Of a stretch of 64,000 nt of DNA, positions 11,219 through 35,891 are shown piece by piece. The DNA is taken from NCBI GenBank assembly GCA_034669905.1, contig JAXMOL010000034.1, positions 21,716 to 85,715 of the forward strand, in the 5' to 3' direction. Each line of letters opens with the position of its first letter. Within the stretch, counting starts at the first letter, position 1. The notes beneath the pieces were generated by a model, which was not told the origin of the DNA, did no database searches, and saw only the letters and a list, made by a program, of their open reading frames with translations. Origin of the DNA: Candidatus Hydrogenedentota bacterium (GTDB taxonomy: Bacteria; Hydrogenedentota; Hydrogenedentia; Hydrogenedentales; JAEUWI01). The position numbers and the translations under genes are program-made.

Positions 11219-11323
11219 ATGGCCCGTATGCGAGTTAGCAGTAAACGTGTGTGCCCTTCCCTTGCGGTGAAAGGGCGAATCGTTCGTGTGAAGGTTACGT
11301 CCGGAAGGGGGATGGTGTCATGA
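11219..11323 (+). CDS. Putative 34-aa basic upstream ORF coupled to the MBL hydrolase gene
   Basis: TAAGGAGGT RBS; MARMRVSSKRVCPSLAVKGRIVRVKVTSGRGMVS; stop overlaps next start as ATGA. Confidence 0.4.
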   Translation: MARMRVSSKRVCPSLAVKGRIVRVKVTSGRGMVS

Positions 11324-12699
11324 AGTTCACGTCTTATGGTGCGGCCGAAGAAGTCACGGGGAGCAAGCACTTTCTCGAATTGAATGGGGCCCGGCTCCTT
11401 CTGGACTGTGGCATGTTTCAGGGGCGGCGCAAAGAATCTTCCGAGAAAAACCGACACTTCGGTTTTGACGTGGAGAGTATCAATGCCGTAATTCTGAGTC
11501 ACGCCCATATTGACCACAGCGGCCTCCTCCCCATGTTGTCGAAATTCGGCTATCGGGGCTGTGTCTATTGCACCCCTGCCACCCGCGACCTGTGCTCCAT
11601 CATGCTCCAGGACAGTGCCCGGATTCAGAAGCGGGACGCGGAGTGGCTGTCCAAGAAACACATGACCTTCTATCCGCCCCTCTACCACGATCAGGATGTG
11701 CGGGAAATCATGAAGCGCTTTGTCTCCGTGCCCTACGACGTTCGCTTTCCGGTGTTGCCCAACGTCTTTATGACCTTTCACGATGCGGGACACGTCCTGG
11801 GTTCGGCGATGGTCGAACTGGAATACGAGGAGAAAGGCGAGCGACGTCGTTTCCTCTTCAGCGGCGATATCGGACGTAAGAATATGGCCATTCTCGATGA
11901 CCCGTGGGAGCCCGGACCCGCTGATGTGGTGGTGATGGAGAGTACCTACGGCGATCGGGACCATGACCCCATGGAGCTCATGGAAGACAAGCTGGCCGGC
12001 TACATCAACGAAACCGTGGAGCGGGGTGGCAAGATGATTATCCCGTCCTTCGCACTGGAGCGTGCCCAGGAGCTGGTCTATGCCCTGAAACGCCTCGAGC
12101 TGAAAAATGCAATTCACGACATCCCGGTTATCGTCGACAGCCCCTTGACGGTAAATATCACGGAGGTGTTCCGGCTGCACACCGAGTCCTTCGATGCGGA
12201 GTTTCGCCGTCTTATGACGGAAAACGGAGATCCTTTCCAGTTGAAGAATATTCGCTACATCCGTTCACTCGAGGAATCGATTGCGCTGAATCGGCTCGAA
12301 GGGCCGGCCATCATTATTTCCGCTGCGGGCATGTGTGAACATGGGCGCATATTGCACCATCTGAAAAATCATTGCGGGAACCGAAAAAACCGGATACTCA
12401 TCATTGGATTCCAGGCGAAGAATACCTTGGGCCGACGCATCGTGGAGCGCAGTCGAACGATTCGGATTTTTGGTATGGATCATGATCTCTACGCCGATGT
12501 CCGCGTCATGAACGAGTTCAGCGCCCATGCCGGCCAGACCGAGCTCCTCGAGTTTGGCGAACGCTTCAAAGACTGTGCCGAAAAAGTGCTCCTCGTGCAC
12601 GGGGAACCGGATGCGATGAAGTCGCTTCAGGACGGCTTGAAAAAGCGGGGTGTGGAGAATGTTATGATTCCCAAAGAGGGAATGACCCTTGATGTCTGA
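11320..12699 (+). CDS. Metallo-beta-lactamase fold/beta-CASP ribonuclease
   Basis: GAAEEVTGS, SHAHIDHSG, AGHVLGS, ESTYG, FSAHA, LVHGE; start reassigned to ATG 11320. Confidence 0.9.
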   Translation: MKFTSYGAAEEVTGSKHFLELNGARLLLDCGMFQGRRKESSEKNRHFGFDVESINAVILSHAHIDHSGLLPMLSKFGYRGCVYCTPATRDLCSIMLQDSARIQKRDAEWLSKKHMTFYPPLYHDQDVREIMKRFVSVPYDVRFPVLPNVFMTFHDAGHVLGSAMVELEYEEKGERRRFLFSGDIGRKNMAILDDPWEPGPADVVVMESTYGDRDHDPMELMEDKLAGYINETVERGGKMIIPSFALERAQELVYALKRLELKNAIHDIPVIVDSPLTVNITEVFRLHTESFDAEFRRLMTENGDPFQLKNIRYIRSLEESIALNRLEGPAIIISAAGMCEHGRILHHLKNHCGNRKNRILIIGFQAKNTLGRRIVERSRTIRIFGMDHDLYADVRVMNEFSAHAGQTELLEFGERFKDCAEKVLLVHGEPDAMKSLQDGLKKRGVENVMIPKEGMTLDV

Positions 12700-31451: not shown

Positions 31452-32495
31452 CTAACGCAGGGGGCCTTTCCCGGCACCGGTTGCCGGGGCTGCCTGTTGT
31501 TGTGCCGCCTGTTCCTGGGCCTGTTTCAGTTGTTCCAAAGTCTGTTGGATGTTGGGTTGATCGGGATTCGCTTTCAGCGAAGACTCATAGCTGCTCCGGG
31601 CCCCTGGATAGTCCCCCATCTGGAGTTGAATCGCGGCGAGAAAATTCCACTTCGCCGTGTCATCAGGGGCGAGGCGCGCTGCCCGTTGTGCCGCGAGAAC
31701 CGCCTGGGGCAGGCGTGCCGCTGCGTAGAGCAGACGGGCATAGGCATCGTGATTTTCGGCCGTGTCGCTGAAGCTTCTACGGTGTTCGTCAAAGTCTACC
31801 AGCGCCAGGCGCAACTGCCGACGCAGCAGAATATCATAGGGTTGGGCCTCCTTGCCGAGGGCGGAGAGTCGCGTGCCGGCTTCCGGTATGTTGCCCCGGA
31901 AAACGTCCACAACCAATTGTCCCAATTGGGCGCGCACATTGCCGCTCTCGATGGCGAGGGCCGCCTCAAAGGCCTGATGGGCGGCCCGGGGCATGCCGCT
32001 GTCGATGTAGTAGCTCCCCAATTCATTCCACGTGGTGACCGCTTCAGCCGACTGGTCATCCCGTTCCAGCGCGTTGTAGAGGGCGTTGATTCCTTCTTCC
32101 TCGTATTTCGTGCCCATGTTGAGGAGTCCGGTCCCCCGCTCCCGCCAGAGCGCGGCGTGGTCCAGTCCATCATCCAGTGCCTTTTTCGCGAAGGCTGCTG
32201 CCAGGTCGTGGTCGCCTCTCAGGCGGACGGCCGTAATGTATCCCATCGCGTTGGCCACGTCGGGCGTATCGGCGTACTGGGTTTCGAAGGCGAGGGCGGC
32301 ATCGGAGAGGGCGTCTGCCGCATTGCGCTCTTGCTGGGCATAGGTTGCGCTGTCACGATTGGCCAGGGCTTCCTGTTGCTGTGCAATTGCCGCTTCGTAA
32401 CGCTTCAAGGCTTCTCCGCCGGATACGGCAGGCTGGGCCATCGCCGGGGAAAGGGCGGCCAGCAAGAGGAGGGTCGGCAGCAGTGCGTGCCCCAT
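31452..32495 (-). CDS. Secreted TPR-repeat protein
   Basis: Signal peptide, several TPR-like helical pairs; ATG overlaps hflX stop (TGATG). Confidence 0.8.
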   Translation of the reverse strand: MGHALLPTLLLLAALSPAMAQPAVSGGEALKRYEAAIAQQQEALANRDSATYAQQERNAADALSDAALAFETQYADTPDVANAMGYITAVRLRGDHDLAAAFAKKALDDGLDHAALWRERGTGLLNMGTKYEEEGINALYNALERDDQSAEAVTTWNELGSYYIDSGMPRAAHQAFEAALAIESGNVRAQLGQLVVDVFRGNIPEAGTRLSALGKEAQPYDILLRRQLRLALVDFDEHRRSFSDTAENHDAYARLLYAAARLPQAVLAAQRAARLAPDDTAKWNFLAAIQLQMGDYPGARSSYESSLKANPDQPNIQQTLEQLKQAQEQAAQQQAAPATGAGKGPLR

Positions 32496-34123
32496 CAGGT
32501 AACGTGTGTAAGATCTTCGGACCACAGGTCGGTCTCCATTTTGGTCAGTAGGTCAGAAAAGGAACTGCGGTCCAGGGCGCTCAGCGGAAAGCCATTAAAC
32601 CGTTCGGTCAGGCCCGCGAGGGTCTCGGGATCGCACTTGTCCTGCTTGTTCAGAACACAGTAGGTGGGTTTCGTGTCCAGTTCCAATTCGCGCAGGAGTT
32701 TCACTACGGTGTCGAACTTGTCTTCAAAGTCGGGGCATGATGCGTCAATTACATGGAGGAGCATGTCGGCATCATGAAGCTCTTCAAAGGTCGTGCGGAA
32801 GGCCGCCTTGAGCTCTTTGGGGAGTTCCCGTATGAATCCCACGGTGTCGGTGATGATAACTTCCCGCTCCTGGGGAAAACGGATACGTCGCGATACGGGA
32901 TTCAGGGTCGCGAAGAGGGCATCCTCGGCGGTCACCTGGCTGTTGGTCAGGTGATTGAGGAGGGTCGATTTACCGGCGTTGGTATAGCCTACCACGGCGA
33001 CGGTGGGTACGCCCTTCCGTTTGCGAACACCACGCCGGAGTTCTCGTCGGTCACCCAATTTACTGACTTCCCGTTCGAGCCGGGCGATACGATCGCTGGC
33101 CCGGCGTCGGTCCACTTCCAGTTTGGTTTCACCCGGACCGCGCCCACCGATTCCTCCCGTCAGACGGGAGAAGGCGGAACTCTTCATGCCAAGGAAGGGC
33201 TGACGATAGCGCAACTGGGCGAGCTCTACCTGGAGCTTCCCTTCCCGGGTGACGGCGTGGAGGGCAAAGATATCGAGAATTACCTGGGTGCGGTCCACCA
33301 CCTTGAGGTCCGTGAACTCGCTGATGCTTTTCATCTGTGACGGAGACAGGGCCATATCGAAAACGATGGTTTCGGCTCCGAGTTGCATGGCCTTGATGAT
33401 GGCCGATTTGAGCTTGCCCTTACCGGTTACAAACTTGGGATCGGGATTTCGCCGCTGGATGATCTCATGGACTACCGTGATGCCGGCACTACGGGCCAGC
33501 TCTTTCAGTTCGTCGATAGAGTCCTGCGCCGCCGTATGGGGACGCCCCGAGACGTGGATAACGACGGCCCGGTCCATGTTGTCACCGCTTTCCCGTCCCC
33601 AGCTCTGGCGGGAAAACTCGTCCTCCAGTGCACCGATGAAGGCGAGAAAGTCTTCGGGTAAGTCGTGGACCCTGGTCTTTTCCAGCAGGGTCCAGGGCTC
33701 ATCCCCATCGTTGGCCGGCATGAGGTGGGCGCGGTGTACTGTGCCCGGGAGTCCCTCCGGGCCGACCTCGATGGCCGCGATACAATCGAGTCGCAGCAGG
33801 GCCAGGTCGGTGAGATCGTCGTCATTGAGCGCTTCCTGATTCAGGTGGGTGTGCACCAGACGAAGGCCGCAGAGTCGGTTACGGCCACGGCGGTTGATGT
33901 CGGGCAGAAAGAGGGAGCGCGCATCGCCGACCACGGCGGCGGATACCCGGCCACGTCGATCAATCAAGAGCCCGATTTGCCGATTGAGCTCGCGGGACAA
34001 TTCGGTGATGGCCCGGGCCAGCTCCGGGGAAATCAATTGGTCCGGGGCGACCTTGCGCTTGGAAAGTTTCTCCAACTGTTTGGTCTGATAGGCCTTGAGG
34101 CCCGATGTGTTACCGCTTAGCAG
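32495..34123 (-). CDS. hflX: GTPase HflX (long form), probable CTG start
   Basis: DRTQVILDIF, GKLQVELAQL, GRGPGETKLE, GYTNAGKS, DTVG, NKQD; N-terminal GNTSGLK segment lies upstream of the first TTG. Confidence 0.93.
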   Translation of the reverse strand: MLSGNTSGLKAYQTKQLEKLSKRKVAPDQLISPELARAITELSRELNRQIGLLIDRRGRVSAAVVGDARSLFLPDINRRGRNRLCGLRLVHTHLNQEALNDDDLTDLALLRLDCIAAIEVGPEGLPGTVHRAHLMPANDGDEPWTLLEKTRVHDLPEDFLAFIGALEDEFSRQSWGRESGDNMDRAVVIHVSGRPHTAAQDSIDELKELARSAGITVVHEIIQRRNPDPKFVTGKGKLKSAIIKAMQLGAETIVFDMALSPSQMKSISEFTDLKVVDRTQVILDIFALHAVTREGKLQVELAQLRYRQPFLGMKSSAFSRLTGGIGGRGPGETKLEVDRRRASDRIARLEREVSKLGDRRELRRGVRKRKGVPTVAVVGYTNAGKSTLLNHLTNSQVTAEDALFATLNPVSRRIRFPQEREVIITDTVGFIRELPKELKAAFRTTFEELHDADMLLHVIDASCPDFEDKFDTVVKLLRELELDTKPTYCVLNKQDKCDPETLAGLTERFNGFPLSALDRSSFSDLLTKMETDLWSEDLTHVT

Positions 34124-34265: not shown

Positions 34266-35243
34266 CTACTGGAGCATGATGCGGCGAATGATCCGCTGCG
34301 ACTCCGTGGCGTCAAGGGTCTTCTGGGCTTTACGCAGTTCGGAGGTGTCCAGTTTTTCCAATTTCTTGTAGAGGATGGACAGGTTTCCGATGGCTATCTG
34401 GAGTGCGTGGGTCGGCTCGATGCGCTGGGGCAGCATGTCGACCGTAAGATAGCCTTTGTATTTGGCCGTCTTAAGATAGAAGAGGGCCTCCATGCATTCC
34501 CAGAGATTGAGGCTGCCCGGAATCATGGCGTCGTCCCACATGCGGTAGCTGTCACTGAAATACATCTGGAACAGCTTACTGGAACGGGTCAGGAAGGCAA
34601 TGGACTCGGCGGGGTTTTCGCCCGACATCATGGCGTGGGAGAAATTCAGGGCCACGCCGACGTTTTTCATGGCGATTTCCTGACACATGGACAAGGCCTT
34701 GCCCACGGTGGCCACGGTCAAGTGCTTGCGGGGTTCACGGGGCTTGTAGGCGATCGCCACGTTGACATCAGGAGACGCATATTTGGCAATGGTCTTGATG
34801 GACGAGATGACCGTATTCCAGTGGGCCGTATAGTCCACCTGGAAGGGATAGTCGAAGCCATCGGTGTTGAGACGAAGGGTGATTTCAGTGGCACCAAGCG
34901 CACGGGCCAGATCAGCGGCTTTGCGGCCTTCGTCGATGGCCGCATTACGGGTTTTCTGGTGCTGGTGGCCGAAGCCCGCCAGAGAAAAGCGTCGGGAATG
35001 GCAGAGATTGGTGTTAACGCCGGAACACGCGAGGCCATTATCTTTCAGAAGGCGTTTCATGTCCTTCACCGGAAGATCGGAAGAAATGTCCGTTTGGCTG
35101 ACTTCGACGCCCTTCAGGCCCTTAATCTTTGCCGCAAGTGAAACCGCCTCGGTGACTTTGGGCACGTCGCGATACCCCTCCACGCAATAGCGATCAGGGT
35201 TGCTCGAAAAGACCCACAGTCCCGTGGAAAATTTTGCGGTCAT
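34266..35243 (-). CDS. Xylose/rhamnose isomerase-like TIM barrel protein, apparently catalytically degenerate
   Basis: DGFDYPFQVDY, AYKPREPR, LNFSHA, GENPAES, WDDAMIPGS. Confidence 0.8.
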   Translation of the reverse strand: MTAKFSTGLWVFSSNPDRYCVEGYRDVPKVTEAVSLAAKIKGLKGVEVSQTDISSDLPVKDMKRLLKDNGLACSGVNTNLCHSRRFSLAGFGHQHQKTRNAAIDEGRKAADLARALGATEITLRLNTDGFDYPFQVDYTAHWNTVISSIKTIAKYASPDVNVAIAYKPREPRKHLTVATVGKALSMCQEIAMKNVGVALNFSHAMMSGENPAESIAFLTRSSKLFQMYFSDSYRMWDDAMIPGSLNLWECMEALFYLKTAKYKGYLTVDMLPQRIEPTHALQIAIGNLSILYKKLEKLDTSELRKAQKTLDATESQRIIRRIMLQ

Positions 35244-35430
35244 TATTGTCTCCTATTACATACTAGTGGCCTGTCAAAAAAAATAAGGCCGGGTTGGACG
35301 TGCACTACATGTGTGACGTAATCTGGTCCTGCATGGTACGCCGAAAATGCACTTCATACCTCTTGAAAAGGGGGAAGTATCAGAGAGCGTATTCCTGTCG
35401 GGTGCAGGTCGCAGGCCATCCGTACGACGC

Positions 35431-35459
35431 ATTATAGGTGATAACTACAGGAATGTCAA
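35431..35459 (-). promoter_or_regulatory. Consensus sigma70 promoter
   Basis: TTGACA-17 bp-TATAAT on the minus strand, about 190 bp upstream of ATG 35243. Confidence 0.85.
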
Positions 35460-35558: not shown

Positions 35559-35682
35559 AAAAAATAAGAGGCGAGTGCAGGTAGCGGGGGAACTACCGTA
35601 TTGCACTCGCCGGTGGTGGGAACCAGTCATTGCTGACTGATAACGTCGGGAAATCTGGGGGAAAGATTTCATGCGACGTCAC
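35559..35682 (-). ncRNA. Candidate small RNA: three hairpins with C-rich motifs, ending in a terminator
   Basis: P1 GUGACGUCG/CGACGUUAU plus GAAAUCU/AGAUUUC; P2 CAGUCA-GCAA-UGACUG; terminator GGCGAGUGCA/UGCACUCGCC then UCUUAUUUUUU. Confidence 0.55.
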
Positions 35683-35891
35683 CATAGGAAACATCCTTTT
35701 CGTGCCCGGTATTCCCGTTATGTGCCATTGAATTGAAAAAAAGTTGCCGTTGGCGTCGGAGCCGGTAAATGGACCCCTTTCGGGCCCTGGATTTCCTGCC
35801 AGGACCGGTGCTGCGTAAAAATTCCCGGGAGCCCAGCGGGACGGAGTACAGGGGGTTGACGCATGAAGGGGCTATGTAGCATAGTGTCGGC

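Follow-up and report, generated by a model that had tools for sequence, protein, structure and literature searches.

The staphylococcal RNAs RsaE and RNAIII, whose hosts are low-GC Firmicutes, carry unpaired UCCC motifs. The LhrC RNA of Listeria has UCCC motifs in two loops and in a linker, binds its target through them and is described as Hfq-independent (PMC4132741). LhrC exists in five copies and is controlled by the LisRK two-component system. The mycobacterial 6C RNA is reported to pair its C-rich loops with G-rich leaders (PMC6486639), while the 6C RNA of Corynebacterium glutamicum is driven by SigA and SigB and gave no signal with SigH in the experiments described in PMC5014011. SigH and SigR are both contained in the group ECF12 (PMC7826278), and the C. 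glutamicum SigH consensus is given as gGGAAta / t-cGTTgaa, in promoters which include those of sufR and trxB1 (PMC10012870).

An RNA gene with a related layout lies in a 64,000-nucleotide stretch of DNA from Candidatus Hydrogenedentota bacterium (the window, meaning the whole stretch that was analysed), where positions 35682-35559 of the minus strand form a folded non-coding RNA gene of about 125 letters. Its C-rich motifs are located in two loops and a linker as in LhrC, a likeness which had been pointed out in a preliminary description of this DNA and which stands. The RNA differs from LhrC by an extra GNRA hairpin and longer C runs, by having no match in Rfam, by its single copy in most genomes, by a predicted ECF-sigma promoter in place of LisRK control and by its phylum. 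It has unpaired UCCC motifs in common with RsaE and RNAIII, from which the missing Rfam match again sets it apart. With the actinobacterial 6C RNA (B11, RF01066) it shares two hairpins with C-rich loops and a high-GC host, and like 6C it would pair with G-rich leaders without a chaperone. It differs from 6C in having five conserved C residues rather than at least six (loop 1 is UCCCCC and loop 3 is YCCCCC, with C at the Y in 19 of 90 sequences), in its three hairpins and conserved linker, and in a SigH-type motif where the C. glutamicum RNA uses SigA and SigB. RF01066 gave no match at E <= 1, in a search whose weak control, the C. glutamicum RNA, was found but fell below the cut-off. Judged by layout, the RNA resembles LhrC and 6C and is a member of neither.

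The reading favoured here, with a probability of roughly 0.6, is that of a conserved sRNA which would be transcribed from a SigH/SigR-like promoter and would repress mRNAs under stress by base-pairing of its C-rich motifs in trans. That the locus belongs to a real sRNA family missing from Rfam 15 is well supported. No Rfam 15 family scores above its gathering threshold anywhere in the window, none of the 4227 families matches the RNA at E <= 10 in a 751-nt region, and no match to the RNA was obtained in 20 homologous loci. In the part of the literature covered, neither an account of a small RNA from this phylum nor an sRNA member of a SigH/SigR regulon was found; motif sets from structured-RNA screens outside Rfam may include this one.

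Fold, strand and genomic position of the RNA

The element is situated in a 648-nt gap between the divergent dprA gene (35892, plus strand, PF02481), which is the next gene upstream, and a xylose-isomerase-like gene (35243-34266, minus strand). No called gene ends at the terminator of the RNA, and as dprA lies on the opposite strand no called gene feeds this terminator. The minus strand of 35682-35559 folds with a minimum free energy (MFE) of -51.3 kcal/mol, compared with -22.1 +/- 3.1 kcal/mol for shuffled sequences (z -9.49; none of 200 shuffles equal).

The P1 hairpin (35640-35682) exposes the loop UUCCCCC at 35663-35657, of which UCCCC is present in 88 of 90 homologues. The P1 stem varies freely in sequence while pairing is retained, with double changes in 16 of 16 pairs, and its base contains two G-U pairs when read on the minus strand. 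The P2 hairpin (35624-35639, CAGUCA/UGACUG) is capped by a GCAA tetraloop and is 99.1% paired; three of its pairs are invariant, three show double changes, and the loop is of the GNRA type in 72 of 90 sequences. The linker GUUCCCACCACC (35612-35623) is predicted to be single-stranded and contains CCYRCCA in 90 of 90. P3 (35570-35611) is the terminator hairpin, with the loop UCCCCC at 35591-35586, CCCCC in all 90 sequences and GGCGAGYGC in 87; its lower stem is nearly invariant in sequence and its upper stem covaries. The U-tract UCUUAUUUUUU (35559-35569) completes the predicted intrinsic terminator, at least six T being found in the last 13 columns of all 90 sequences, and MFE and centroid structures concur on the terminator fold. 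The C-rich motifs are thus almost fixed in sequence, and together with the tail they are the only parts of the RNA predicted to be accessible.

The minus-strand arrangement drawn in the preliminary description, in which a long hairpin is followed by a GCAA hairpin, a linker and a terminator, is borne out and is far from chance. One detail has to be corrected: in place of the 8-nt P3 loop UUCCCCCG the prediction has the hexaloop UCCCCC above a closing U-G pair, which 3 of 90 homologues in one set and 4 of 56 in another replace by U-A. The same description took the minus strand to be the sense strand of a discrete non-coding RNA gene whose terminator is fed by no credible coding sequence, and this agrees with the conserved structure, the gene's own promoter motif and terminator and the orientation of dprA. 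In the 90-sequence alignment, the minus-strand reading has 296 G-U cells but only 98 A-C cells at paired columns, which marks the minus strand as the sense strand; the promoter motif, the U-tract and the GNRA loop point in the same direction. A small protein-coding gene was considered and rejected, as the distances from one invariant motif to the next are spread over all three reading frames; an ATG within P2 opens a frame which has no stop ahead of the U-tract.

Three RNA-seq runs with shares of 0.04-0.09 bear on expression. In a comparison at 80% identity, two of the libraries each yielded one 179-nt contig, covering 35567-35649 and 35559-35648, and the third yielded none. These contigs hold relatives' sequence and match only the RNA within 2001 nt; they carry no information on strand or ends and may be DNA, as may the 79 and 89 nt by which they run past the U-tract side. 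They are compatible with expression and prove nothing.

Distribution and conservation in the phylum

Of 41 related genomes, 28 contain the RNA according to BLAST. Twenty of these homologues served to build a covariance model, which was run over 135 genomes of the phylum (most records are titled Hydrogenedentota) and identified it in 87, among them 57 of the 86 of high quality; 48 of 66 genera are represented. Most carriers have a single copy (81 genomes), five have two and one has three, and the model found none in the families f11 (0 of 23) and f13 (0 of 10). Among 90 distinct sequences, 91.2% of cells are paired and double changes affect 29 of 36 pairs, in an alignment which was fitted to the structure; none of 500 shuffles scored as high on any measure, and slid partners paired in 29-37%. 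RNAalifold on an unfitted alignment of 20 sequences returned double changes in 11 of 27 pairs. The homologue search with covariation and the Rfam comparison, both proposed as checks in the preliminary description, hence speak for a conserved structure that is undescribed in Rfam.

A pattern for P3 only, applied to metagenomes, gave 68 loci, of which 65 are strong model matches (>90 bits). They include 53 distinct full-length copies, 35 of them absent from the first alignment, in which UCCCC of loop 1 is kept in 52 of 53 and the linker in all 53. An exact 25-letter pattern searched in one genome per prokaryotic species matched 60 loci, whose titles name Hydrogenedentota or Hydrogenedentes (39), Nitrospirales or Nitrospiraceae (14), no taxon (5) or others (2); the pattern is strict, so that distant relatives in other phyla could escape it. 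As 19 of the 21 loci titled outside Hydrogenedentota carry the isomerase-like neighbour at 64-94% identity, they are probably members of this lineage. In a viral collection the five pattern matches included none above 10 bits with the covariance model.

A wider model, searched against 40 of the 48 negative genomes, gave four with E <= 0.5, of which only the one in G048 is syntenic; the three non-syntenic matches resembled chance or repeat hairpins and were discarded. Decayed and shortened copies are found at the syntenic place in G047, G048 and G049 (L258, L262 and L261), where the promoter is intact and the lower P3 stem survives while the C-rich motifs erode. A check of 40 further loci upstream of the isomerase-like gene revealed a truncated true copy in G096. 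Together, these remnants suggest that the RNA was lost in some lineages rather than gained late, and its loss in two families, along with the decayed copies in one genus, provides a natural contrast set for target finding. In G123 (L117) and G124 (L115) two copies stand in tandem at a distance of about 230 nt; both have a promoter motif of their own, and both lie away from the isomerase-like gene.

Promoter motif and putative regulon

The preliminary description had not identified a promoter. The minus strand contains GGAATA-N17-GTT at 35715-35690, which is predicted to be a SigH/SigR-type (ECF) promoter with its -35 element GGAATA at 35710-35715 and its -10 element GTT (in TGTTT) at 35690-35692, and from which transcription is predicted to start at about 35685-35682. 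The homologues follow the pattern G(G/A)AAT(A/G/T)-N16-18-GTT. Relative to the 5' end, this motif lies between -40 and -1 in 77 of 88 homologues, compared with 14 of 12636 other 40-nt control windows, where the pattern was derived from those very sequences and the control windows include coding DNA; in 62 of the 77 the last base of the GTT is 5-6 nt upstream of model position 1. It is also present in 38 of 51 metagenome copies.

A weight matrix derived from the RNA promoters was run over the genome with de novo gene calls and recovered 25 intergenic sites that lie no more than 350 nt from a called gene. Recognised redox or Fe-S genes follow only five of these (sufB, which scores highest of the 25, tpx, sodA, msrA and brxA/B), and the other 20 are mixed. 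The motif lies upstream of 30 of 30 sufB orthologues (control 1 of 90), 20 of 29 sodA orthologues (1 of 81) and 11 of 29 tpx orthologues (2 of 85), each count referring to the best-scoring 29-30 loci of its search. It also precedes msrA and brxA/B in the genome itself; the BrxA/BrxB bacilliredoxin gene (TIGR04191; 42868-43383, plus strand) has a weak motif of 13.3 bits and is a predicted member of the same regulon. The sufB motif is kept in genomes without the RNA, which indicates that the regulon extends further than the RNA does. The genome's best promoter site (23.0 bits; G000:C11:4877, plus strand, L159) follows an integrase-like fragment and has no clear gene after it; it may drive another small RNA.

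In sequence, the RNA promoter motif equals the C. glutamicum SigH consensus. Its -35 GGAAT and -10 GTT lie at promoter distance from the RNA and are shared with thiol/oxidative-stress and Fe-S genes. Given this identity and the motif common to sufB, sodA and tpx, the RNA probably forms part of a SigH/SigR-type regulon for thiol-oxidative stress, as its non-coding arm. The ECF12 regulons of SigH (Corynebacterium, Mycobacterium) and SigR (Streptomyces) are similar in their promoter GGAAT-N18-19-GTT and in their suf targets. The best candidate for the sigma factor is SigH_actino-like: among 33 sigma-factor matches in the genome, the best to SigH_actino is G000:C8:29794-30336 with 195 bits, below the cut-off of 251.55, the next reaching 104, and 127 of 135 genomes contain a single orthologue of this factor. 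The differences from the known regulons are a host outside Actinobacteria, a sigma factor below the cut-off, the lack of an autoregulatory motif (the motif precedes the sigma gene in 1 of 30 cases, control 5 of 90) and the lack of an adjacent zf-HC2 anti-sigma gene, none of the seven zf-HC2 genes adjoining it. We infer that the RNA is likely to be transcribed under thiol-oxidative stress, with the G000:C8 factor as its probable cognate sigma. The sigma gene itself (G000:C8:29791-30400, minus strand) has a sigma-70-type promoter. Its frame is conserved upstream of the first ATG, with no obvious ATG start shared among the sequences listed, and a non-ATG start, as in SigR isoforms, is possible.

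The promoter and regulon go beyond the preliminary description and, by sequence analysis alone, reveal what is likely to be the regulon (suf, sodA, tpx, msrA, brx) with which the phylum responds to thiol-oxidative stress. Envelope-stress sigma factors have repressing RNA arms, and if the sigma link is true a SigH/SigR-type response would have one as well. It would also follow that the three-motif design of LhrC emerged a second time, in a distant lineage of high GC content that lacks Hfq.

Candidate targets, the isomerase-like neighbour and alternative readings

By analogy, the best mechanism would be pairing of the three exposed C-rich motifs in trans with G-rich translation-start regions of mRNAs, which would lead to repression, probably independent of Hfq, of targets that are probably many and lineage-specific; the pairing, the repression and the targets are all predicted. 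The LhrC-like layout favours base-pairing. Action in trans is favoured by the LhrC and 6C precedents, by the restriction of accessible sequence to the C-rich motifs and tail and by the absence of any match to Hfq, LSM or ProQ in the genome carrying the window (one genome, 95.7% complete). The hflX-type GTPase gene of the window (32495-34075, minus strand) has no hfq in front of it.

Anti-Shine-Dalgarno action, in the form claimed in the preliminary description, is not supported, and the loops do not fit the dominant ribosome-binding site (RBS). A search of the assembly for the 16S 3' end, which holds the true anti-Shine-Dalgarno sequence, gave nothing. AGGAG is the enriched motif (647 in the RBS window against 22 in the control window), followed by GGGAG (289 against 31) and the rare GGGGG (49 against 25), so that only those RBSs which are rich in G could pair with the UCCCCC loops. 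A scan of 4656 start regions of the genome gave no outstanding match (best -10.7 kcal/mol). The predicted pairings are short and unremarkable, and start regions pair worse with the RNA than coding controls do. The best other match in a search for a long antisense partner in the genome had an E value of 0.16.

The target suggested earlier, AAGGGGGA at 11305-11312, is present 7 nt before the ATG at 11320 of a beta-CASP metallo-hydrolase gene (11320-12699, plus strand; 44 of 61 genomes; best NCBIfam hits below cut-off). It did not hold up, since genomes with and without the RNA do not differ: a five-G run is found in 2 of the 18 that carry it and in 0 of the 12 that lack it, and GGGA or GGGG in 11 of 18 and 8 of 12. 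The gyrB leader was rejected as a conserved target, its five-G run being found in all five genomes of the genus, in none of 15 other genomes that carry the RNA and in one of 10 that lack it; within the genus this run, about 25-30 nt before the start, is only a lead. Also rejected were lpdA, where a G-run is seen in 7 of 17 genomes with the RNA (five from the genus itself, in which the run faces a CCCC run in a hairpin of its own) compared with 0 of 13 without it, and the sigma-factor leader, where no conserved G-rich site was seen among the sequences listed. None of these four candidates is therefore a conserved target. Target prediction further named hypD, ctaD, pilT and thiD.

The syntenic neighbour (34266-35243, minus strand) encodes a xylose-isomerase-like TIM-barrel protein and has a perfect sigma-70 consensus promoter, TTGACA-17-TATAAT, at 35431-35459 on the minus strand (12 of 12 positions; kept in aligned relatives), which makes it a unit separate from the RNA. 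The gene is single copy in 127 of 135 genomes, mostly at 58-100% identity. The closest solved relative of its product, which has a pI of 9.3, is 3KTC (E 4e-53). In alignment to the xylose-isomerase motifs, whose ligand numbering we take as given, most of 54 orthologues have other residues at four of the seven metal-ligand positions, so that the protein is probably a strongly conserved, catalytically dead pseudo-enzyme.

The RNA and this gene are linked on the same strand within 1.5 kb (219-1295 nt, the RNA upstream) in 75 of 87 RNA-bearing genomes, and two of the alternative readings start from this synteny. It is rather unlikely that the stress-induced RNA acts through a protein, its C-rich loops and invariant stems titrating or scaffolding the isomerase-like protein or a poly-C-binding factor. 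The near-invariance of the P2 base and lower P3 stem exceeds what pairing needs and suggests a protein contact, and survival of lower P3 in the G047-G049 copies with eroded loops, the basic neighbour with its replaced ligands and the absence of a conserved mRNA target among the candidates checked all agree with such a role. Against it, the neighbour is retained at 58-81% identity where no intact RNA is found (21 of 23 genomes in f11 and 10 of 10 in f13), it has its own sigma-70 promoter, and 12 of the 87 carriers lack the linkage, some perhaps through contig breaks. The more specific proposal of a phylum-wide stress RNA under SigH/SigR-type control, complexed with the dead isomerase-like protein as chaperone or target in the absence of Hfq and ProQ, has a low probability. 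A cis-acting leader or attenuator of the isomerase-like gene, with read-through set by a ligand or protein, is just as improbable: strand, spacing and the extension of the two library contigs beyond the U-tract side (which may be DNA) would suit it, yet a consensus sigma-70 promoter intervenes, the spacer is unconserved beyond the genus, both structure predictions agree on a terminator, and extra and tandem copies lie away from the gene.

Least credible is a plus-strand RNA sequestering CsrA through GGA loops. The genome encodes CsrA, and the plus strand of 35559-35682 does fold (-48.8, z -5.47) with GGGGGAA loops. The G-U excess, the frequent GNRA loop and the common direction of promoter motif and U-tract all oppose this reading, and GGA loops of the CsrB/RsmZ type are not on the predicted transcribed strand, the C-rich strand being favoured. 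Repression of mRNAs through base-pairing in trans is the reading favoured here. As regards the spacer downstream, a second RNA was considered and rejected, its UUCCCCC region being kept only within the genus; in the window, the leader of the isomerase-like gene (35260-35425, minus strand) contains this further UUCCCCC at about 35375 together with a short hairpin and U-run.
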